Assembly: GCA_963843755.1 (NCBI GenBank)
Contig: CAWJLS010000001.1
Span: forward strand, 27,749 to 91,748
Reading direction: 5' to 3'
DNA: 64,000 nt
Source: an uncultured Acidobacteriota bacterium
GTDB taxonomy: Bacteria > Acidobacteriota > Thermoanaerobaculia > Multivoradales > DATKCC01
Part shown: positions 28,301 to 57,761 of the stretch, one piece after another
Position numbering within the stretch: position 1 is the stretch's first letter
Layout: each line of letters starts with the position of its first letter
Position numbers and translations under genes: made by a program
The notes under the pieces: model-generated
Database searches by the model: none
Seen by the model: the letters and a program-made list of their open reading frames with translations, nothing else
What the model was told of the DNA's origin: nothing

Positions 28301-28852
28301 ATGAACATCGAATACGTGGGTAGGAACTACACCGTGGACGACAGCGTCCGGGCATATATCGAGGGCAAGCTGGGCAAGGTGAGCAAGTTCGTCCAGGAGC
28401 CGGTCGAGATCCGGGTGACCCTCGAGACCGAAAAACACCGCCACATCGCGGAGCTCCACATCGCGCACAAGAACGGGGTCTTCCAGGCCACCGAAGAGAC
28501 GGGGGACATGTACGACGCCCTCAACATGGCCCTCGAGAAGCTCGAAAAGCAGGTCCGGCGGTCGAAGAAGAAGGCGATCGACCGCCGTCGGCGCGCCGAC
28601 AGAACTGAGACCAACGGCCAGCGGTGGCCGCTCGAGGTGTTCGCCCCGGGCAGCTTCGCGGCCGGCGCCGAGCGCAAGATCATCAAGACCACCCATCTGC
28701 CCATCAAGCCGATGTCCATCGAGGAGGCCGCCCTCCTTCTCGAAGGGGCGAAGAACGAGTTCATCGTCTTCCGCGACTCCACCACCGACCGGGTGAGCGT
28801 CCTCTACAAGCGCAAGGACGAGAACTACGGCCTGATCGCGCCCGAGTTCTGA
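28301..28852 (+). CDS. hpf: Ribosome hibernation promoting factor (long HPF)
   Basis: Ribosomal S30AE N-domain (DMYDALNMALEKLEKQVRR) plus C-terminal KPMSIEEA...YKRKDENYGLI. Confidence 0.93.
   Translation: MNIEYVGRNYTVDDSVRAYIEGKLGKVSKFVQEPVEIRVTLETEKHRHIAELHIAHKNGVFQATEETGDMYDALNMALEKLEKQVRRSKKKAIDRRRRADRTETNGQRWPLEVFAPGSFAAGAERKIIKTTHLPIKPMSIEEAALLLEGAKNEFIVFRDSTTDRVSVLYKRKDENYGLIAPEF
28586..28601. promoter_or_regulatory. parS-like palindrome copy inside hpf
   Basis: CGTCGGCGCGCCGACA, 15/16 match to TGTCGGCGCGCCGACA. Confidence 0.55.
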
Positions 28853-35283: not shown

Positions 35284-36705
35284 ATGACGCGAACACCACG
35301 CCGCTTCTTCATCGAAACCTGGGGCTGCCAGATGAACGAGCTGGACACCCAGCGCATGGCAGGCCAGCTCATGCAGCAGGGCATGCTCCCGACCCGGGAG
35401 GCGGCCGAGGCCGACCTGGTCCTGCTCAACTCGTGCAGCGTTCGTGAAAATGCGCAGAACAAGGTCTACTCGCGCATCGGGGAGTACCGGGCGTTCAAGA
35501 GCGAGCGGGAGGTGCTGATCGGCCTGTGCGGCTGCGTCGCCCAGCAGGAGGGGGAGGCCGCCCTCGACCGCGCCCCCGAGCTCGACTTCGTCCTCGGCCC
35601 GGCCCGGGTCGGCGAGCTCCGGGACATCGTCGCCCGCCGCCGGGCGGGGGAGCGGGTGGTGGCCACCGGCTTCCCGGAAGAGCGCGCGTTCGATCTCGAC
35701 GCCATCTCCCGCGACGGCGTCTACAAGGGCATGGTGACCTGCATCGAAGGGTGCGACAAGCGGTGCACCTTCTGCATCGTGCCCAGCACCCGCGGCCCCG
35801 AGCGCTGTCGCCCGATGGCCGAGATCCTGCGCGAGGTGCGCCACCTGGTCGACTACGGCTTCCGCGAGATCGAGCTCCTCGGCCAGACGATCAACCACTG
35901 GCGCGAGCCCGACCACCCGGCCGGGCCCTCGTCGAATAGTCCTAACCAACACAAAGGAAAGGACTTCGCCGACCTCCTGGACGCGGTGGCGACGATCCCC
36001 GGCGTCGAGCGGCTGCGCTTCATCACCTCCTACCCGCGGGACTTCACGCCCGCCATGATCGCCGCGTTCGCCCGGCACGAGGCCATCTGCCCCTACCTCC
36101 ACCTGCCGGTCCAGTCCGGCTCCGACCCGGTGCTGCGCCGCATGGGGCGGGGCTACACGGTGGGCTCCTACCTCGCGCTGATCGACCAGATCCGCGAGGC
36201 CCGCCCCGGCGTGGTCTTCTCGACCGACCTGATCGTCGGCTTCCCGGGAGAGACGGAGGAGCAGTTCGAAGAGACGGTGCGGCTGATCGAGCGGGTGCGC
36301 TACGGCTCGGTCTACGCCTTCAAGTACTCACCCCGGCCGGGGACCGCGGCGCCACGGCTCGACGGCACGGTCGACCCGGAGGTGGCCAACCGCCGGCTGA
36401 ACGACCTGTTCGCCGTCCAGGCCGAGATCCAGAGGGAGCTCAACGCGGCGCTGGTGGGGGAGCGGTTCGAGGTCATCGTCACCGGGTGGGGGAAGGAGCC
36501 CGGGTTCCAGACCGGCCGTACCCCGTGCCACCGCATGGTGAACTTCGCCGCCGGCCCCCACCCGACCGCCCTCGGCAGCCTGGTCGAGGTGGAGATCGAC
36601 CGGTCGTATCCTCATAGCCTGATCGGGCATCGAGTGGGCGTGGGGGCGGGGGAGGAGCAGGACGCGGCGACGGAGCGGGGGCCGCGCTTGGCCGTCTTGC
36701 GGTAG
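35284..36705 (+). CDS. miaB: tRNA-2-methylthio-N6-dimethylallyladenosine synthase
   Basis: TWGCQMN, NSCSVR, GCVAQ, radical SAM GCDKRCTFC, HLPVQSGS, YSPRPGT, TRAM domain. Confidence 0.95.
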   Translation: MTRTPRRFFIETWGCQMNELDTQRMAGQLMQQGMLPTREAAEADLVLLNSCSVRENAQNKVYSRIGEYRAFKSEREVLIGLCGCVAQQEGEAALDRAPELDFVLGPARVGELRDIVARRRAGERVVATGFPEERAFDLDAISRDGVYKGMVTCIEGCDKRCTFCIVPSTRGPERCRPMAEILREVRHLVDYGFREIELLGQTINHWREPDHPAGPSSNSPNQHKGKDFADLLDAVATIPGVERLRFITSYPRDFTPAMIAAFARHEAICPYLHLPVQSGSDPVLRRMGRGYTVGSYLALIDQIREARPGVVFSTDLIVGFPGETEEQFEETVRLIERVRYGSVYAFKYSPRPGTAAPRLDGTVDPEVANRRLNDLFAVQAEIQRELNAALVGERFEVIVTGWGKEPGFQTGRTPCHRMVNFAAGPHPTALGSLVEVEIDRSYPHSLIGHRVGVGAGEEQDAATERGPRLAVLR

Positions 36706-36729
36706 GTAGCGCGTGGGAGGGGTTCGCCG

Positions 36730-36893
36730 GAGCGGGTGGCGAGGGGACCGGCTCCGGGACGGCGCGACGAACCGGACGGGTGGGGGATCAACGCGCACCT
36801 CGGCATGGCCCGCGTCGGGGCGGGACGGACCGCTCTGACGCTACCGCGGACGCGGTCCATGACGCCCTCCACCGGTCCCCTCGCCACCCGCTC
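36730..36893. repeat. 164-bp element bounded by perfect 22-bp inverted repeats
   Basis: GAGCGGGTGGCGAGGGGACCGG (36730-36751) and its exact reverse complement (36872-36893). Confidence 0.8.
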
Positions 36894-37132
36894 GGTCCGG
36901 ACCGTCTGCCTCGGTCGGTCGACCTCTCGTCGCATTCGACAAGCCTCCGCCGCATTCGGCGGTGGAAGCCGCGAGCCGTGTCCTGGTGGGGAAGAGAATC
37001 GGGAACAGCGGCTGGACCGGCGACGACAGGCGAACGGTGTGCCCATGGAGCGTCCTCCCGGACGCTCCCGACAAACGCCCCGCGTTTCGACTCTCCCCTC
37101 TCCCCATTGTCGACAGGTCTTTCGCCCTTCGC

Positions 37133-37161
37133 TTGACCTCACCCGACCCCACGATCAGAAT
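37133..37161 (+). promoter_or_regulatory. Sigma70 promoter, likely leaderless transcript
   Basis: TTGACC-N17-CAGAAT-N6-ATG, no Shine-Dalgarno. Confidence 0.65.
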
Positions 37162-37167
37162 ACCCCC

Positions 37168-37668
37168 ATGACCGAAACCTCCGACGCGCTTCGCATGGAG
37201 ATCAAAGGGTTGATGCTCGACCCCGCCTCCAACGTGCCCATCGTCATCCTGCGCGACGAAGAGAGCGACGTCTTCCTCCCGATCTGGATCGGTGTGTTCG
37301 AGGCCAACGCCATCGCCCTGCGCATCGAAGGAGTCGAGCCGCCGCGCCCGATGACCCACGATCTCCTGCTGGCGACGCTCACCCATCTCGGCGCGGCGAT
37401 CGAGCGCATCGTCATCTCCGACCTGCGAGACAGCACCTTCTTCGCCCGCATCCACCTCGACCGCGGCGGGACCAAGATGACCCTCGACTCCCGCCCCAGC
37501 GACGCCATCGCCCTCGCCCTGCGCGCCGACGCCCCCATCTTCGTCCTGCGGGCCGTCCTCGAGAAGGCCCACGCCGTCGACCACTCCCACGAGGCCACCG
37601 AAGAAGAGAAGATCCGCAAGATGCTCGAAGAGCTCGGCCCCGAGGATCTCGGCAAGTACACCATGTAG
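37168..37668 (+). CDS. Bifunctional nuclease family (DUF151) protein
   Basis: LPIWIGVFEANAI, RPMTHDLL, FFARIHL, DSRPSDAIALALR. Confidence 0.92.
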   Translation: MTETSDALRMEIKGLMLDPASNVPIVILRDEESDVFLPIWIGVFEANAIALRIEGVEPPRPMTHDLLLATLTHLGAAIERIVISDLRDSTFFARIHLDRGGTKMTLDSRPSDAIALALRADAPIFVLRAVLEKAHAVDHSHEATEEEKIRKMLEELGPEDLGKYTM

Positions 37669-37672
37669 TCCC

Positions 37673-37717
37673 GGCCAGCGATCCCGCCCCTGTGGGCCCT
37701 CCGCGGGATCGCTGGCC
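37673..37717 (+). terminator. Strong hairpin after the DUF151 gene
   Basis: 15-bp perfect stem GGCCAGCGATCCCGC/GCGGGATCGCTGGCC; no U-tract. Confidence 0.6.
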
Positions 37718-37782
37718 CTGCCCACCCGCCCCCGCCCGTCCCCCAACGACGAAAGCCCTCCGTCCTCGGCCCCCGGAGTGTC

Positions 37783-37804
37783 GGATGTCGGCGCGCCGAC
37801 ATCC
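37783..37804. promoter_or_regulatory. parS-like palindrome copy 1 (22-bp perfect palindrome)
   Basis: GGATGTCGGCGCGCCGACATCC; 16-bp core at 37786-37801. Confidence 0.65.
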
Positions 37805-37863
37805 CGTCGGCGCCGCCGCCGTCCACTCCTCCAAGTCGCGCTGCCGCAAGAGGTTCCACTCGA

Positions 37864-37879
37864 TGTCGGCGCGCCGACA
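37864..37879. promoter_or_regulatory. parS-like palindrome copy 2
   Basis: TGTCGGCGCGCCGACA, perfect. Confidence 0.65.
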
Positions 37880-37995
37880 GACGACCGCGCGCGGCACCGT
37901 CGCGCGCCGGGCCGGTCGCGAGGGGCCCGGTGCACGGGGCCGTCCGGGCGTCCCCCCGCGCGCGAACCGGACCCCAGGCCACCGAGCGTTCGGGC

Positions 37996-38011
37996 GGTCG
38001 GCGCGCCGACA
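37996..38011. promoter_or_regulatory. parS-like palindrome copy 3
   Basis: GGTCGGCGCGCCGACA, 15/16. Confidence 0.6.
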
Positions 38012-38106
38012 GGGCCTCTGCCGCCCACCCGGACCCCGCCGGTCGCCACCCCGTACGCGCCCGTGCGCCGAACGCCTCCGCGGCGCCGCGATCCTGGTCC
38101 CGCGGG

Positions 38107-38135
38107 TTGACCTCGTCCGAGCCATTCTGTACATT
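38107..38135 (+). promoter_or_regulatory. Sigma70 promoter for parAB
   Basis: TTGACC-N17-TACATT, 11 nt before ATG, no Shine-Dalgarno. Confidence 0.7.
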
Positions 38136-38146
38136 CCCGCCGACCT

Positions 38147-38905
38147 ATGATCATCGCGATCACCAATCAGAAGGGCGGCGTCGGCAAGACCACGACCGCC
38201 ATCAACCTCTCCGCAGCGCTCGCCAACAAGGGGCTCAAGACTCTCCTGGTCGACCTCGATCCTCAGGCGAACAGCTCGATGTCCTTCATGGACGTCCACG
38301 ACCTGGGCCAGTCGATCTACGAGGCGCTCACCGAGCCCGAGATCACCGTCGAATCCATCACGCGGCCGGTCGAGCAGATTCCCCATCTCGACCTGGCGCC
38401 CGCGGCGATCTCTCTCGCCAAGATCGAGTCGAAGCTCCTGGGCGAGCTCGACAGTCACTTCCGGCTCAAGGACGAGCTCGCGTCGGTGCGGGACGTCTAC
38501 GACAACATCATCATCGACACGCCCCCGACGCTCGGCATCATCACGGTCAACGCCCTGGTGGCCGCGACCCACGTGCTGGTGCCGATCCAGTCGAGCTACT
38601 TCGCCCTGGAAGGGACCGACGACCTGCTGGAGACGATCGACAAGATCAAGCAGCGGGCCAACCCGGAGCTGCAGCTCCTGGGCGCGCTGATCACGCTCTA
38701 CGACAAGCGGACCCTGCTGTCGCGCGACATCCAGGACCAGATCAGCGGCGTGTTCGGCGACAAGGTGTTCAAGACGCTGATCACCAAGAGCGTCCGCCTC
38801 GAGGAGAGTCCGGCGTACCACGAGTCGATCTTCAGCTTCGCGCCCAACTCGAGCGGAGCCGCCGAGTACTACCAGTTGTCGGAAGAGGTTCTGAGCCGGG
38901 TCTGA
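38147..38905 (+). CDS. parA: ParA/Soj-family ATPase
   Basis: Deviant Walker A NQKGGVGKTT, LVDLDPQAN, IIDTPP, VLVPIQSSYFALEG; no N-terminal HTH. Confidence 0.95.
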   Translation: MIIAITNQKGGVGKTTTAINLSAALANKGLKTLLVDLDPQANSSMSFMDVHDLGQSIYEALTEPEITVESITRPVEQIPHLDLAPAAISLAKIESKLLGELDSHFRLKDELASVRDVYDNIIIDTPPTLGIITVNALVAATHVLVPIQSSYFALEGTDDLLETIDKIKQRANPELQLLGALITLYDKRTLLSRDIQDQISGVFGDKVFKTLITKSVRLEESPAYHESIFSFAPNSSGAAEYYQLSEEVLSRV

Positions 38906-39000
38906 GACCCGAACGCCGGACCGGGGCGGGCCGCGCGCCGGGCCCGAGCGGAGACCGGGCGCGGTCGCAGCCGAGACGGACGACGAGAGGAGACGCGGGG

Positions 39001-39903
39001 ATGACGACGAAGAAGCGCGGCTTGCCGGTGCGGGTCAAGATGCGGCACGACAACCACTTCGTGGAGGAGCTCACGACGCGCCACGAGGTGCCGGTCGGTC
39101 GCATGGTCGCCCTGGCGAACGTCGAGCCCGACCCCCACCAGCCGCGCACCATCATGGGCGACCTCGCCGACCTGGTGGCCTCGGTCCGGGAGCGCGGCGT
39201 CCTCGAGCCGATCCTCGTCCGCCGGATCGACACCGACGGCGACGGGGAGGAGGACGGCACCGACGACGACCGCGCGGATGCCGAGCGCGCCGAAACCTTC
39301 CGCATCATCTCCGGTGAGCGCCGCTACCGCGCCGCGCAGCAGGCCGGGCTGTTCGAGGTGCCGGTCATCGAGATGGAGGTGACCGAGCAAGAGGCGCTCG
39401 AGATCGCCCTGATCGAGAACCTCCAGCGCAAGGACCTCACCCCCTTCGAAGAGGCCGAGGGCTACCAGACCCTGGCCCAGCTCCACGGCTACACCCACGA
39501 GGAGATCTCCGAGGCGGTGGGGAAGTCCCGCACCGTGATCACCGAGAGCCTCGCCCTCCTCCAGATGCCGCCGCGGGTGCGCGACGCGGTCCAGGCCCTG
39601 GGGATCACCACCAAGTCGCTTCTGCTCGAGGTGTTGAAGGCGGGGAGCGAGGAGGAGATGATCCGCCTGCTCGAAGAGGTCTCGAGCCACGGCCTCAACC
39701 GCGACGACCTGCGCCAGCGTTTGCGCCGGCGCGACCGGGCGACCAGCAAGCCGCGGCGCACGCCCTACGCTTTCAAGTTCCGGGCCCCGGACAAGAGCTA
39801 CACCCTCAACCTCACCTTCCGCCAGAGCGAGGTCGACCGCCAGGATCTGATCCAGGCCCTGGAGCAGATCCTCGGCGAGCTCCGCCAGCAGGCGGCCAGC
39901 TAG
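39001..39903 (+). CDS. parB: ParB/Spo0J-family CTP clamp protein with divergent HTH
   Basis: PHQPR, GVLEPILVR, ISGERRYRA, IENLQRKDL..FEEA, HTH THEEISEAVGKSR; ATG 39001. Confidence 0.92.
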   Translation: MTTKKRGLPVRVKMRHDNHFVEELTTRHEVPVGRMVALANVEPDPHQPRTIMGDLADLVASVRERGVLEPILVRRIDTDGDGEEDGTDDDRADAERAETFRIISGERRYRAAQQAGLFEVPVIEMEVTEQEALEIALIENLQRKDLTPFEEAEGYQTLAQLHGYTHEEISEAVGKSRTVITESLALLQMPPRVRDAVQALGITTKSLLLEVLKAGSEEEMIRLLEEVSSHGLNRDDLRQRLRRRDRATSKPRRTPYAFKFRAPDKSYTLNLTFRQSEVDRQDLIQALEQILGELRQQAAS

Positions 39904-40197
39904 GAGTCGGCGCGGCAGGACCGCGCAGACTCTCCCAGGCTCCTTCCCGCGGCCGGCGCCCGGCCGCTCGCACCCCCTCCTCTCGGCCACCCGGCGGCCG
40001 TACCGAGCAGGGGAGAGGTCCGCCTGTCGGACGGGCCTCCCCTTGCCCGCGTCCCCTCCTCGTACCCCGTGCCGCGCAACAGAGAGAACCGACGGAGCCG
40101 GGCATGTCGAGGCGGACCAAGGAGGCCGAACCGTGCCCGGCATGCTGCACGCCGATCCTTATTGAGACGATGGCGTGACCGCATATTCGCGTCGGAC

Positions 40198-40217
40198 ATA
40201 TCCACAGGTCTTCCACA
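40198..40217 (+). promoter_or_regulatory. Two DnaA-box-like 9-mers, 11 bp apart
   Basis: ATATCCACA and TCTTCCACA, each one mismatch from TTWTNCACA. Confidence 0.35.
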
Positions 40218-40443
40218 GCATCCGCACCCCTCGCGAACGACGGCAGAGCGCCGCCTGGCCGAGGCGAATCGGCCCCTCCGCCGAAGCCAGAGAGACCCGA
40301 AAGCGGGGAGCCAGGACGCGCGCCCCAGGACGGAGCCAGAGAGCAGAGCGGGGCGACAGGGCGGGGCGAGGAGACCACCAGCCCGGCATCATCGACAGCC
40401 TTTCGTCGCGCCTCGCTCGCCGTCCCGCCTTGCTCGCTCCGTA

Positions 40444-40471
40444 ACTTTACATAATGTATCTTATCGGACCC
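40444..40471 (-). other. dif site (XerC/XerD chromosome dimer resolution)
   Basis: Minus strand GGGTCCGATAA-GATACA-TTATGTAAAGT: 11-6-11 layout; XerD arm 10/11 to B. subtilis TTATGTAAACT, 9/11 to E. coli TTATGTTAAAT; intergenic; gene strand bias flips here. Confidence 0.88.
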
Positions 40472-40613
40472 TGCGTTCGGCCGGGTCTCGGCTAGATCTC
40501 AGCCAGCTCTCGGCCCGGTCGACGCCCGGTCTGCGCTCGGTCCCGAGCCCTCGATCCGCCGTCCGGTCAGATCTGCCGACCCGCTGGCCGACGTCGTCTC
40601 ACCTCTGGTCTTT

Positions 40614-41051
40614 TCATCTCTGGCCGCTCGCTCCGTCCGGCCGCCACTCGGCAGCCAGATCTTCGTCCTCCTCGAGACGGAGCTTCGCCAGCTTCGCCGC
40701 GCCCGGGATGTGCTCCGCGAGCCGGCGTGCGATCCACTGGATGAGGTTCTCGCTCGACGGGATGTCCCGTCCCGGACCGAACGCCTCGATCGCCTCGTTG
40801 AGATGATGATGATCGAGCGGCTCGAGGACTTCCGAAGCGACCAGGAGGTCGAGCGCTCCGAGGTCGACCAGGAACCCGGTCTCCGGGTCGGGATCGCCGG
40901 CGACGGTCACGAACAGGCGGTAGTTGTGTCCGTGGCCCGGAAGGTTGGCGCACTTGCCGAACCGGCGGCGGTTTTCCTCCTCGGACCAGTCCGGCCGGCG
41001 GTACAGGTGACTCGCGCTGAATCGGTAGCGACGTTCCAGGTGAATGGGCAT
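40614..41051 (-). CDS. queD: 6-carboxy-tetrahydropterin synthase / PTPS family
   Basis: FSASH, GKCANLPGHGHNY, LDHHHLN, PSSENL; ATG 41051. QueD versus other PTPS roles not resolved. Confidence 0.85.
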   Translation of the reverse strand: MPIHLERRYRFSASHLYRRPDWSEEENRRRFGKCANLPGHGHNYRLFVTVAGDPDPETGFLVDLGALDLLVASEVLEPLDHHHLNEAIEAFGPGRDIPSSENLIQWIARRLAEHIPGAAKLAKLRLEEDEDLAAEWRPDGASGQR

Positions 41052-41075: not shown

Positions 41076-43463
41076 GTGCGGTGGTTGCTCGACCGGTACC
41101 TCCTTCGGGAAATCGCAGGCCCTCTTGGCCTCGGTTTCCTCGTCTACACGTTCATCCTCCTGCTGCAGGCGCTGTTCAAGTCGGCGGAGATGATCATCCG
41201 TCGGGGGCTCCCCGTGTCGACGGTCGGCGAGCTGCTGGCCCTGTCGCTGCCCAACATCGTCGTCCTCACCATCCCGATGTCGCTGCTTTTCGGGGTGCTG
41301 ATCGCCATCGGCCGGATGTCGTCGGACAGCGAGCTGGTGGCCATGCGGGCGACCGGCATCAGCCTGCTCAGCCTGTACCGGCCGATCCTCCTCCTCTCCA
41401 CCTTCTTCTTCCTGGTCAACACGGTGTTGATGGTCTGGGTGCTCCCCTGGGGCAACCACCGGCTGCAGCTCGAGCGGCTCGACATCCTCACCCAGAGCAT
41501 CTCGACCCAGGTCGAGCCGCGGATCTTCTGGGACGAGTGGGAGGACCAGGTGCTCTACGTCTTCGAGACCTCGGAGAGCGGAGACTCCTGGCGCGGCGTC
41601 TTCCTCGCCCAGTCGATCCCGTCGACCCACACCAACCAGGTGACCGTCGCCGAGCGCGGCCGGGTCCGGGTCGATCGCGACGGCGAACGGGTCGTGCTCG
41701 AGCTCTCGAACGCCCAGGTCCACGAGGTCGACCTGTCGAAGCCGGACTCCTACCAGATCAGCTCCCACGACAGCCTGGAGGTGGTGCTCGAAGACCAGTT
41801 CTCCACCGAGCAACGGGCGCAGATCTCCGCCTCGAAAGGAGTCCGGGAGCTCAGCCTGCCGGAGCTCACTCAGTGGATGCACGACCCGAAGCGCACGGCG
41901 GAGACCCGCCGCCTGGCCCGGGTCGAGATCCACAAGAAGTTCTCGATCCCGTTCGCCTGCATCGTGTTCGGGATCTTCGCGTTGCCGCTCGGCTTCGACA
42001 CCAGCCGCGGTGGCAAGGCGTCCGGGTTCGCGCTCTCGATCCTGGTGATCGTCGTCTACTGGGTGCTGCTCGACACCGGCGAGAAATCCGCGGAGGCCGG
42101 CAACCTGGCGCCGTGGCTCGCCATGTGGGGTCCCAACATCCTCCTGTCCGGCCTCGGGCTCTTCCTGCTCGCCCGGCGCAACCGCGACAAGAGCCTGCTG
42201 CTGACCAAGATCGACCGCTGGATCCGCCGGGATCTGTGGGCCCGGGTCCACTTCTTCCAGCGGCGCCGCCAGGAGCGGGCGGCCCGCCGGCGGGCCGTGC
42301 GGCTCGAGCGGGAGCGCGCGCGCCACGACGACCCGCACCTGGTCATCCGGCTCCCCCGCGTCCGGGTCTGGGTGCCGAACCTGATCGACCGCTACGTCTT
42401 CCGCGTCTTCACCAGCGTCTTCGGCCTGGTCCTCCTGTCGGGGCTCTCGATCTACCTGGTGGCGGACCTGACCGGCAAGGCGGACGAGATCATGAAGAAT
42501 CACGTCCCCCGATCGGTGATCCTGCAGTACTACAAGTACTCGTCGCTTCAGATGTTCTACGAGATCTCGCCGATCCTCGTGCTGGTGGCGACGCTCATCA
42601 CCTTCAGCCTGCTGTCGAAGTCCAACGAGGTCATGGCCTTCAAGGCGCTCGGCGTCAGCCTCTACCGGCTGGCCGTGCCGGCGGTGGCGGCGGCGCTGGC
42701 GATCACGATCTTCACCGCCTTCCTGGAGACCGAGGTCCTCCCCGCCTCCAACGAGAAGGTGGCGCGCCTCGACGACCGGATCCGCGGACGCGAGACCGCG
42801 CGGACCTATCGCCGCGCCGACAGGCAGTGGCTCTTCGGGCAGGACCGCTATATCTACAACTACATCCACTACGACCCCGAGCGCCAGACGCTCCACCGGC
42901 TGCAGGTGTTCGAGTTCGATCCGGACACCCACCAGCTCGTCGGCCGCCTGGTCGCCCAGCGTGCCACCTACGATCACGACGGATGGTGGAAGTTCGAGGA
43001 CGGCTGGTCGCGGACCTTCTCCGACAAGCGGGTCAGCCAGTACGACCGCTTCGCCGGCGACGTCCTCGGCCGCTTCCCCGAGGACCCCCACTACTTCGAC
43101 AGCGAGATCCGCCCGCCCGAGCAGATGAGCTACGGCCAGCTCAAGGACTACATCGGCGAGGTGGAACGGAGCGGCCAGTCGGTGCCGGAGCTCAAGGTGC
43201 AGCTCCAGAGCAAGATCGCCTACCCGGCGATCAGCCTGGTCATGGCGCTGGTCGCCCTCCCCTTCGCGTTCCGGCTGGGGCGGCAGGGCGCGCTCTACGG
43301 CGTCGGTCTGTCGATCGTCCTGGGGATGGTCTTCCTGGCGATCTACGCCTTCTTCACCACCCTCGGCGAGGCCGGTGCGCTGCCACCCATGGTCGCGGTA
43401 TGGAGCCCGAACGTGGTCTTCGGGCTGTTCGCGGTCTACCTCTTCCTCGGCGTCAGAACCTGA
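41076..43463 (+). CDS. lptFG: Fused LptF-LptG LPS export permease
   Basis: Two tandem YjgP/YjgQ modules (LDRYLLREI...SSDSELVAMRATGISL; IDRYVFR...KSNEVMAFKALGVSL). Confidence 0.92.
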   Translation: MRWLLDRYLLREIAGPLGLGFLVYTFILLLQALFKSAEMIIRRGLPVSTVGELLALSLPNIVVLTIPMSLLFGVLIAIGRMSSDSELVAMRATGISLLSLYRPILLLSTFFFLVNTVLMVWVLPWGNHRLQLERLDILTQSISTQVEPRIFWDEWEDQVLYVFETSESGDSWRGVFLAQSIPSTHTNQVTVAERGRVRVDRDGERVVLELSNAQVHEVDLSKPDSYQISSHDSLEVVLEDQFSTEQRAQISASKGVRELSLPELTQWMHDPKRTAETRRLARVEIHKKFSIPFACIVFGIFALPLGFDTSRGGKASGFALSILVIVVYWVLLDTGEKSAEAGNLAPWLAMWGPNILLSGLGLFLLARRNRDKSLLLTKIDRWIRRDLWARVHFFQRRRQERAARRRAVRLERERARHDDPHLVIRLPRVRVWVPNLIDRYVFRVFTSVFGLVLLSGLSIYLVADLTGKADEIMKNHVPRSVILQYYKYSSLQMFYEISPILVLVATLITFSLLSKSNEVMAFKALGVSLYRLAVPAVAAALAITIFTAFLETEVLPASNEKVARLDDRIRGRETARTYRRADRQWLFGQDRYIYNYIHYDPERQTLHRLQVFEFDPDTHQLVGRLVAQRATYDHDGWWKFEDGWSRTFSDKRVSQYDRFAGDVLGRFPEDPHYFDSEIRPPEQMSYGQLKDYIGEVERSGQSVPELKVQLQSKIAYPAISLVMALVALPFAFRLGRQGALYGVGLSIVLGMVFLAIYAFFTTLGEAGALPPMVAVWSPNVVFGLFAVYLFLGVRT

Positions 43464-57745: not shown

Positions 57746-57761
57746 CGTCGGCGCGCCGACG
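57746..57761. promoter_or_regulatory. parS-like palindrome copy (may double as terminator hairpin)
   Basis: CGTCGGCGCGCCGACG, with the identical 14-bp core, between convergent hemE and acyl-CoA dehydrogenase. Confidence 0.5.

Follow-up and report, generated by a model that had tools for sequence, protein, structure and literature searches.

A conserved palindrome beside parAB and dif as the probable parS site of a second, terminus-located ParABS system in Acidobacteriota

Introduction

Chromosomal ParABS systems are treated as origin-segregation machines, and active handling of the replication terminus is known mainly from the MatP/matS system of Enterobacteria. Here we analyse a stretch of 64,000 nucleotides from an uncultured Acidobacteriota bacterium of the class Thermoanaerobaculia, hereafter the window, which corresponds to positions 27749-91748 of contig C1 in a 5.05-Mb metagenome-assembled genome (MAG; 13 contigs, 82% complete) that we refer to as G000. 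The window carries a parA-parB pair (parAB2, encoding ParA2 and ParB2) next to a dif site, together with five copies of a palindrome that we name parS2; a further pair on contig C11 is named ParAB1. The palindrome is confined to the window within its genome, conserved in relatives, located at the terminus and linked to ParB2, and comparative evidence makes it a very probable cognate site, both centromere-like and operator, of a second ParABS system lying at the terminus beside dif in Acidobacteriota. This terminus ParABS exists besides an ordinary origin-proximal ParAB1/parS on the same chromosome.

The locus has the familiar parts of canonical Soj/Spo0J ParABS systems: a Soj-type ParA with a deviant Walker A motif, a ParB with GxxRxxA and ENLQR boxes, a helix-turn-helix (HTH) region and a C-terminal dimerisation-like tail, and, in parS2, a 16-bp dyad site with TGT...ACA ends that is clustered at the par operon. 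It departs from them in that parAB2 lies at the terminus beside dif and coexists with ParAB1/parS, and in that the recognition helix and the N-terminal peptide of ParB2 are altered. One review places parS sites most often near the origin (PMC7333895). Noc of Firmicutes, with its Noc-binding site (NBS), is likewise a paralogue among the ParB-family CTPases; changes in the HTH region and helix alpha6 have rewired its DNA specificity, and it has a 14-16-bp palindrome of its own beside ParB/parS (PMC7383237). However, Noc works without a ParA of its own, its gene neighbours parAB at the origin and its sites are kept out of the terminus, whereas ParB2 has a ParA partner (except in one genus, g15) and sites confined to the terminus.

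Palindromes confined around dif also recall MatP/matS of Enterobacteria and Vibrio, the more so in four relatives (G027, G017, G036 and G145) with 8-15 sites over 0.15-1.3 Mb, but MatP belongs to an unrelated protein family, in most lineages studied here the sites number just 1-5 and lie within some tens of kb, and the system includes an NTPase motor partner. A search of G000 for MatP (PF06303) gave no match, the E. coli control being positive. Two orthogonal ParB/parS pairs per cell occur in bacteria with secondary replicons as well (ParAB2/parS2 of Vibrio cholerae chromosome 2; chromosomes 2 and 3 of Burkholderia), although those pairs serve separate replicons near their origins and here both are on one chromosome. 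Integrative mobile elements exploiting Xer (IMEX) can carry parAB next to dif, so that their partition genes, too, stand immediately beside this site; unlike them, the present locus has no second dif, a core synteny kept phylum-wide, a vertical-looking inheritance and no close plasmid relative. A full-text literature search returned no account of a ParABS at the terminus, of a chromosome with two ParABS or of the present motif. What the comparisons point to is thus, in all likelihood, a ParABS with a new parS specificity and a new chromosomal location, and with a derived form that has dispensed with ParA.

Results

Copies of the palindrome in the window and in the genome

The elements that carry the argument are the following, in window coordinates.

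28586-28601, no strand: secondary parS2 copy CGTCGGCGCGCCGACA, 15/16, inside the hpf coding sequence, where it encodes R-R-A-D
37783-37804, no strand: parS2 copy 1, a 22-bp perfect palindrome GGATGTCGGCGCGCCGACATCC with its 16-mer core at 37786-37801
37862-37879, no strand: parS2 copy 2 GATGTCGGCGCGCCGACA, with the perfect 16-mer at 37864-37879
37994-38011, no strand: parS2 copy 3 GCGGTCGGCGCGCCGACA, 15/16, 150 bp 5' of the parA2 start codon
38107-38135, plus strand: sigma-70-like promoter TTGACC-17-TACATT, a consensus match only, ending 11 nt before the parA2 ATG
38147-38905, plus strand: parA2, a 252-aa Soj-type ParA ATPase with the deviant Walker A motif KGGVGKT and 42% identity to ParA1 of contig C11
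39001-39903, plus strand: parB2, encoding a predicted ParB CTPase of 300 aa, in which the GERRYRA and IENLQRKDL boxes are present, as is an HTH_ParB domain
40444-40471, no strand: dif site of the XerCD type, an AT-rich 28-mer ACTTTACATAA-TGTATC-TTATCGGACCC, with the XerD-like arm TTATGTAAAGT on the minus strand
57746-57761, no strand: fifth copy CGTCGGCGCGCCGACG, identical to the 16-mer at 14/16 positions and located between convergent genes, with CCCC/GGGG flanks that extend the stem

An earlier, sequence-only reading of the window had counted five exact copies of the 14-mer GTCGGCGCGCCGAC, and our recount agrees (28587, 37787, 37865, 37997 and 57747). Its zero-order estimate of 0.005 copies per 64 kb was of the correct order: when the window is shuffled with its dinucleotides preserved, 0.01 copies are expected, and none of 100 shuffles reached five. 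Within the whole 5.05-Mb genome the window copies are the only ones, a count that is a lower bound because the MAG is incomplete. Markov models of order 0-6 predict 0.4-1.5 copies per genome, against which the five observed amount to an approximately four-fold excess only; all five, however, fall within 29.2 kb, that is 0.6% of the genome (P ~6e-9), and it is this clustering, not the copy number, that is improbable. The same reading had made its proposal depend on a frequency distinct from the Markov background, and with five copies against ~1.2 expected, plus their extreme clustering, the proposal stands.

Three of the five copies sit in the 478-bp spacer that separates parA2 from an upstream gene with a bifunctional-nuclease (BFN) domain. 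The perfect 16-mer TGTCGGCGCGCCGACA is found in copies 1 and 2 only; the copies at 37996 and in hpf match it at 15 of 16 positions and the copy at 57746 at 14, and copy 1 extends over 37783-37804 to the 22-bp perfect palindrome listed above. The core of parS2 reads GTCGGC-GC-GCCGAC and its full consensus ATGTCGGCGCGCCGACAT. It has the TGT/ACA ends alone in common with canonical parS TGTTNCACGTGAAACA, the two being different at 10 of 16 positions, and the canonical site has no match in the window at up to three mismatches.

Half-sites flanking copy 1 and a CGCCGAC at 38138-38144 had also been pointed out; they are present but uninformative, as the genome contains some 7,000 copies of the 7-mer half-site and 656 of TGTCGGCG. 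We therefore dropped half-sites as evidence, 7- and 8-mers being abundant genome-wide, and for the autoregulation that had been read from the CGCCGAC at the parA2 start region this ubiquitous 7-mer offers no evidence. The position of the full sites, immediately 5' of the parA2 promoter, does agree with an operator role; promoter-like sites numbered two, against 0.0 expected from shuffles. A variant with two mismatches at 42807, within lptFG, was taken as chance, about two matches per window being expected at up to three mismatches.

Conservation of the site and of the locus

The records of relatives are almost all MAGs. A ParB2 orthologue (53-86% identity) is encoded in each of the 41 genomes sampled from the family and order, nearly all of which also have a canonical ParB (~40%), and across the phylum a ParB2 match at E<=1e-40 was obtained for 84 of 151 genomes, a tally that is a lower bound, with one genome (G042) missed at this threshold. 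All order-level ParB2 loci but one (29 of 30) contain the exact 14-mer, and the exception is a locus without upstream sequence. At the class level, represented by 80 named loci, the site lies at -57 to -176 bp from the parA2 ATG wherever enough upstream DNA is available, the mode being about -70 to -85, and its flanks lengthen it to an 18-22-bp palindrome (ATGTCGGCGCGCCGACAT, often CGATGTCGGCGCGCCGACATCG). Dyad symmetry is kept in several variants of the sequence (GTCGGCCGGCCGAC, TTCGGCGCGCCGAA).

Genome-wide scans of 12 relatives returned 0-3 exact copies each, all but one no further than 66 kb from parB2, and the reversed-pattern control gave 0-1 copies. The secondary copies are not orthologous, lying within hpf in G000 and within a RecJ-like gene in G028, in both cases encoding R-R-A-D; sites therefore turn over yet stay near parAB2. 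Other classes have GTCGGC-NN-GCCGAC inside parB2, right after parB2 or upstream of parA2. The sites inside parB2 are read through the codons TGT CGG CNG GCC GAC AT as C-R-x-A-D-I, an arrangement comparable to that of B. subtilis, whose spo0J itself has parS embedded in it.

Ten of the 12 ParB2-negative genomes have no more copies of the motif than of its reversed-pattern control. This control set was not clean, as it included G042, a supposedly negative genome with two close exact copies of the motif; parAB2 was then found beside them, and the motif pair had thus correctly predicted the locus. The gene order miaB-like/BFN/parA2/parB2/dif/lptFG is kept both class-wide and phylum-wide, with the BFN gene adjoining parAB2 in 73 of the 80 loci of the class and in all 20 from the wider phylum, and the ParB2 tree is deeply structured, its reading frames being intact.

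ParA2 and ParB2

ParA2 has the deviant Walker A motif MIIAITNQKGGVGKTT and matches AAA_31 (8.8e-57) and CbiA (5e-27). ParB2 matches ParB_N (3e-22) and HTH_ParB (1e-17), passes the TIGR00180 model (138.7 bits; cut-off 58.45) and stays under the cut-off of the Noc model TIGR04285 (141 vs 315 bits). Its recognition helix is GKSRTVITESLALL, at a position where canonical ParB has GKxRSTVANALRLL; in the alignment the family as a whole has changed this helix to GKSR[TS]x[IV]TE[SA]L[AS]L, and the helix that follows from xxGHARALL to SKSxLL. The parS-versus-NBS specificity of ParB and Noc is set in this same HTH region that is altered in ParB2 (PMC7383237). No co-variation of the central dinucleotide of parS2 (GC, CG, TG) with recognition-helix residues of ParB2 was evident by eye in the alignment.

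The N-terminal peptide of ParB2, KKRGLPVRVKMRHDNHFVEEL, is conserved in the family and replaces the canonical LGRGLDALL; it is lost in exactly the genus without ParA2, which is suggestive of a stimulator of ParA2. In a maximum-likelihood tree ParB2 forms a distinct long-branch clade with 100/100 support, and the ParBs of Thermus and Myxococcus group with acidobacterial ParB1. The closest plasmid ParBs (tblastn against PLSDB) reach at most ~42% identity over partial alignments. ParB2 also has an acidic stretch, DTDGDGEEDGTDDDRADAERAE, inserted before GERRYRA (residues ~75-97; window 39220-39290), some 17 residues of which are missing from Thermus Spo0J and Myxococcus ParB.

A separate canonical pair on contig C11

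A tblastn search located a second ParA (42% identity) and a second ParB (39% identity) on contig C11, in the order recR-ybaB-dnaX ... yidC-jag-three near-canonical parS-rsmG-parA1-parB1 (C11:127405-129912). These three parS variants are asymmetric (TGTTTCCCGTGAAACA, AGTTTCCCGTGAAACC/G) and follow a GTTGTTTCACCGTC in every case, and ParB1 loci of relatives have the perfect canonical parS TGTTTCACGTGAAACA; ParB1 itself carries the canonical LGRGLDALL peptide and the helix GKSRSTVTNALRLL. The C11 locus has the classical origin-proximal arrangement, and, given this canonical parAB1/parS, the pair of the window is therefore a second system. Consistently, the neighbours of parAB2 (miaB-like, BFN, lptFG) differ from the oriC set yidC/jag/rsmG/dnaA, and a site of the parS2 type is absent from 19 of 20 ParB1 loci of relatives, the remaining one (L210) having a single copy. 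An orphan ParA-like ATPase with 38% identity to ParA2 and no adjacent ParB is encoded at C13:162757-163506.

dif and the location of the locus on the chromosome

The dif-like 23-mer core is single in the genome at up to two mismatches. Downstream of parB2, a dif of the form nGTTnACATAA-N6-TTATCGGAC is found in 71 of the 80 loci of the class and in 17 of 20 more distant ones, its two arms of roughly 11 bp being conserved, its 6-bp centre variable and its distance from parB2 between 50 bp and 3 kb. XerD is encoded in the genome (372 bits, above the cut-off), as is a second Xer-like protein.

The ParB1 and ParB2 genes are separated by 42-49% of the chromosome in four closed single-contig genomes. 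In three closed genomes, G028, G027 and G145 (the last from a different family elsewhere in the phylum), GC skew was sampled in windows, and a switch from plus to minus was located between the 3.30- and 3.53-Mb windows in G028 (parB2 at 3.533 Mb), between 3.40 and 3.64 Mb in G027 (parB2 at 3.665 Mb) and between 0.92 and 0.935 Mb in G145 (parB2 at 0.928 Mb); parB2 and dif are accordingly at or near a terminus-type switch in all three. The opposite switch brackets ParAB1 in G027 (1.04-1.08 Mb) and occurs in the ParAB1 region of G028, where it is noisy, and of G145 (ParA1 at 3.99 Mb). On contig C1 of G000 the skew is clearly negative to the right of dif and near zero or mixed over the 68 kb to its left, and genes change from the plus to the minus strand at ~43.7 kb, ~3 kb to the right of dif, with a fused lptFG in between. 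The terminus is therefore assigned from the skew of closed relatives together with this gene-strand switch.

The orientation of the asymmetric dif with respect to parB2 flips between lineages (loci L031-L110 and L131-L150), and in L091, L093, L098 and L106 miaB-like and lptFG are on swapped sides, which suggests recurrent inversions centred on the terminus.

Genomes without ParA2 and genomes with many sites

In the genus g15 (G017, G027 and G036, two of them closed) ParA2 is absent genome-wide, the BFN gene abuts parB2, the first ~30 residues of ParB2 are missing and no site lies close to the promoter. Sites of the form GTCGGC-(CG/TG/CA)-GCCGAC nevertheless number 10-15 per genome, mostly within ~1 Mb of the terminus; in G027 all 13 fall in 2.91-4.20 Mb, an interval of 1.29 Mb that includes parB2. 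It follows from these losses that the sites go with ParB2, not with ParA2 or the promoter, and that the N-terminal peptide of ParB2 goes with ParA2. G145, which retains ParA2, has eight sites within 146 kb centred on parB2. A matS-like spread of sites is thus observed in some lineages. Such a spread on both sides of dif had been suggested for the window itself, which is right in part: the copies of the window cover 29 kb only, in a parS-like manner, and it is some relatives, with 8-15 sites in 0.15-1.3 Mb, that are matS-like.

Discussion

That the palindrome is a non-canonical parS of the adjacent ParB, as the sequence-only reading had proposed, is well supported by comparison: the site is unique to the vicinity of parAB2, conserved, and co-occurs with parB2; ParB2 forms a distinct clade with its own recognition helix; and a separate canonical pair is encoded in the same genome. 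We infer a mechanism in which ParB2 dimers would bind parS2 by recognising the two GTCGGC half-sites through their family-specific HTH surface, close as a CTP clamp and move outward along the DNA across the parA2 promoter, parAB2 and dif, so that the terminus acquires a partition complex. Through its basic N-terminal peptide, ParB2 would stimulate nucleoid-bound ParA2-ATP, and ParA2 would in turn position this one complex, plausibly at mid-nucleoid until termination and apart thereafter, while the three sites just 5' of the promoter could double as an autoregulatory operator. It is tempting to speculate further, although we stop somewhat short of calling it probable, that the locus is a dedicated terminus centromere, in which ParB2 clamps would coat the dif region and ParA2 would hold the unreplicated terminus at mid-nucleoid and part the sister termini once resolution by XerCD/FtsK is complete; in lineages that no longer have ParA2, ParB2 would have become an organiser of the Ter domain akin to Noc or MatP, acting from many dispersed sites.

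Several points weigh against a second ParABS with parS2 as its centromere. The evidence that ties ParB2 to parS2 is comparative throughout; the sites inside parB2 of other classes are confounded by protein-coding constraint; the N-terminal KKRGLPVRVK... of ParB2 is unlike the canonical LGRGL, so that stimulation of ParA2 is presumed; and the GC skew of the own contig shows no sharp switch at dif. The fifth copy (57746-57761) was assigned to the system by position only, being one of the five in the genome and 17 kb from dif; it is possibly a weak parS2, a terminator stem or both, and could be nothing but the latter. Most relatives, moreover, have a single site, ~60-80 bp 5' of the parA2 ATG and beside the promoter, which is what would be expected if parS2 were an operator only, through which ParB2 or another repressor autoregulates parAB2 with no centromere role; ParB-family proteins such as KorB, which was among the PDB matches, do act as repressors. 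We regard this explanation as unlikely, since extra copies lie far from the parAB2 promoter (in hpf, in the recJ-like gene and between convergent genes), 8-15 copies cluster within 0.15-1.3 Mb of the terminus in G145, G027 and G036, the genus g15 has many sites in the Ter region and none at the parB2 promoter, and a ParA partner and intact CTP-clamp motifs are kept phylum-wide.

The proximity of all sites to the terminus, the adjacent dif and the fact that binding of ParB2 to parS2 is a prediction would also agree with the site belonging to some other factor that is specific to the terminus, for example an organiser like MatP or an accessory protein of Xer/FtsK, and co-localising with parAB2 because both lie at the terminus. 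This is very unlikely, as the main site is fixed relative to parA2 or lies in parB2 while the distance (50 bp-3 kb) and orientation of dif vary, the genome has no MatP homologue, and ParB2, with its diverged recognition helix, has no other candidate site, ParB1 having a canonical parS of its own. Partition genes beside dif further recall integrated elements that exploit Xer, and the repeats might be functionless relics of a plasmid or IMEX once integrated at dif and now decaying. An ancient origin of that kind is possible, but a present-day lack of function is excluded, and the relic explanation as such is extremely improbable: only one dif-like site exists in the genome at up to two mismatches, the synteny from miaB-like to lptFG is conserved in class and phylum, the ParB2 tree is deeply structured with intact frames, and no plasmid ParB exceeds ~42% identity, in a partial match. 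There remains the reading of parS2 as a chance GC-rich palindrome, an element like the repetitive extragenic palindromes (REP) or the stem of an intrinsic terminator, for which a genome of 71% GC, a count just ~4-fold over the Markov expectation and the extended stem of copy 5 between convergent genes could be adduced. Its distribution and conservation rule out the terminator or REP reading, and we consider it effectively refuted: all five copies lie in 0.6% of the genome, with no dispersed family elsewhere in it, the site is identical across relatives whose ParB2 has diverged to ~60% identity, the copies are not at 3' gene ends and have no T-runs, and no Rfam family matches the region 37000-41000.

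If parS2 is indeed the cognate site of a terminus-located ParABS, ParA/ParB motors can also be dedicated to the terminus, and this across a whole, poorly studied phylum. In the more speculative reading given above, the system would do with a motor what the MatP/Ter linkage does passively, and would share its chromosome with an origin ParABS; the ParB2 of lineages without ParA2 would be the second independent case, Noc being the first, in which a ParB CTPase has passed from partitioning to the marking of a domain. The new ParB/parS specificity pair, the second natural reprogramming of a ParB beside Noc, would be useful as an orthogonal tool for DNA labelling. Genomes with ParA2 and 1-8 sites versus those without ParA2 and with 10-15 dispersed sites would then represent a natural series from centromere protein to domain organiser.

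Other features of the window and of the genome

Two features lie immediately upstream of the parS2 cluster.

36736-37668, plus strand: BFN-domain gene (PF02577, by Pfam), the conserved upstream neighbour of parAB2
37673-37717, plus strand: hairpin with a 15-bp perfect stem (inverted repeat), 3' of the BFN gene, terminator-like but without a T-run

The hairpin separates the BFN gene from the parS2 and promoter region. Together with the miaB-like radical-SAM gene, the BFN gene (both within window 35284-37668) is a standing neighbour of parAB2 across the phylum, and a functional tie between the BFN nuclease and the terminus system is possible. Housekeeping genes surround the locus, namely rpoN, hpf, ptsN, hprK, rapZ, ptsI, the miaB-like gene and the fused lptFG. 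An Rfam search of 37000-41000 at E values up to 0.1 gave no match. The spacer between parB2 and dif (39904-40443) is 540 bp long and of lower GC; within it we found neither an open reading frame with coding-type GC at third codon positions nor an Rfam match, and in most relatives dif lies 50-250 bp past parB2.

Extra Xer-like recombinase genes occur at C1:1005-2280, ~25 kb to the left of the window, and at C2:178043-180821 (235 and 229 bits with the XerD model). Both adjoin palindromes made of the XerC-type arm of dif, for instance GTCCGATAAGGCGCCTTATCGGAC at C1:2257-2280, and may represent single-recombinase Xer modules or integrated elements.

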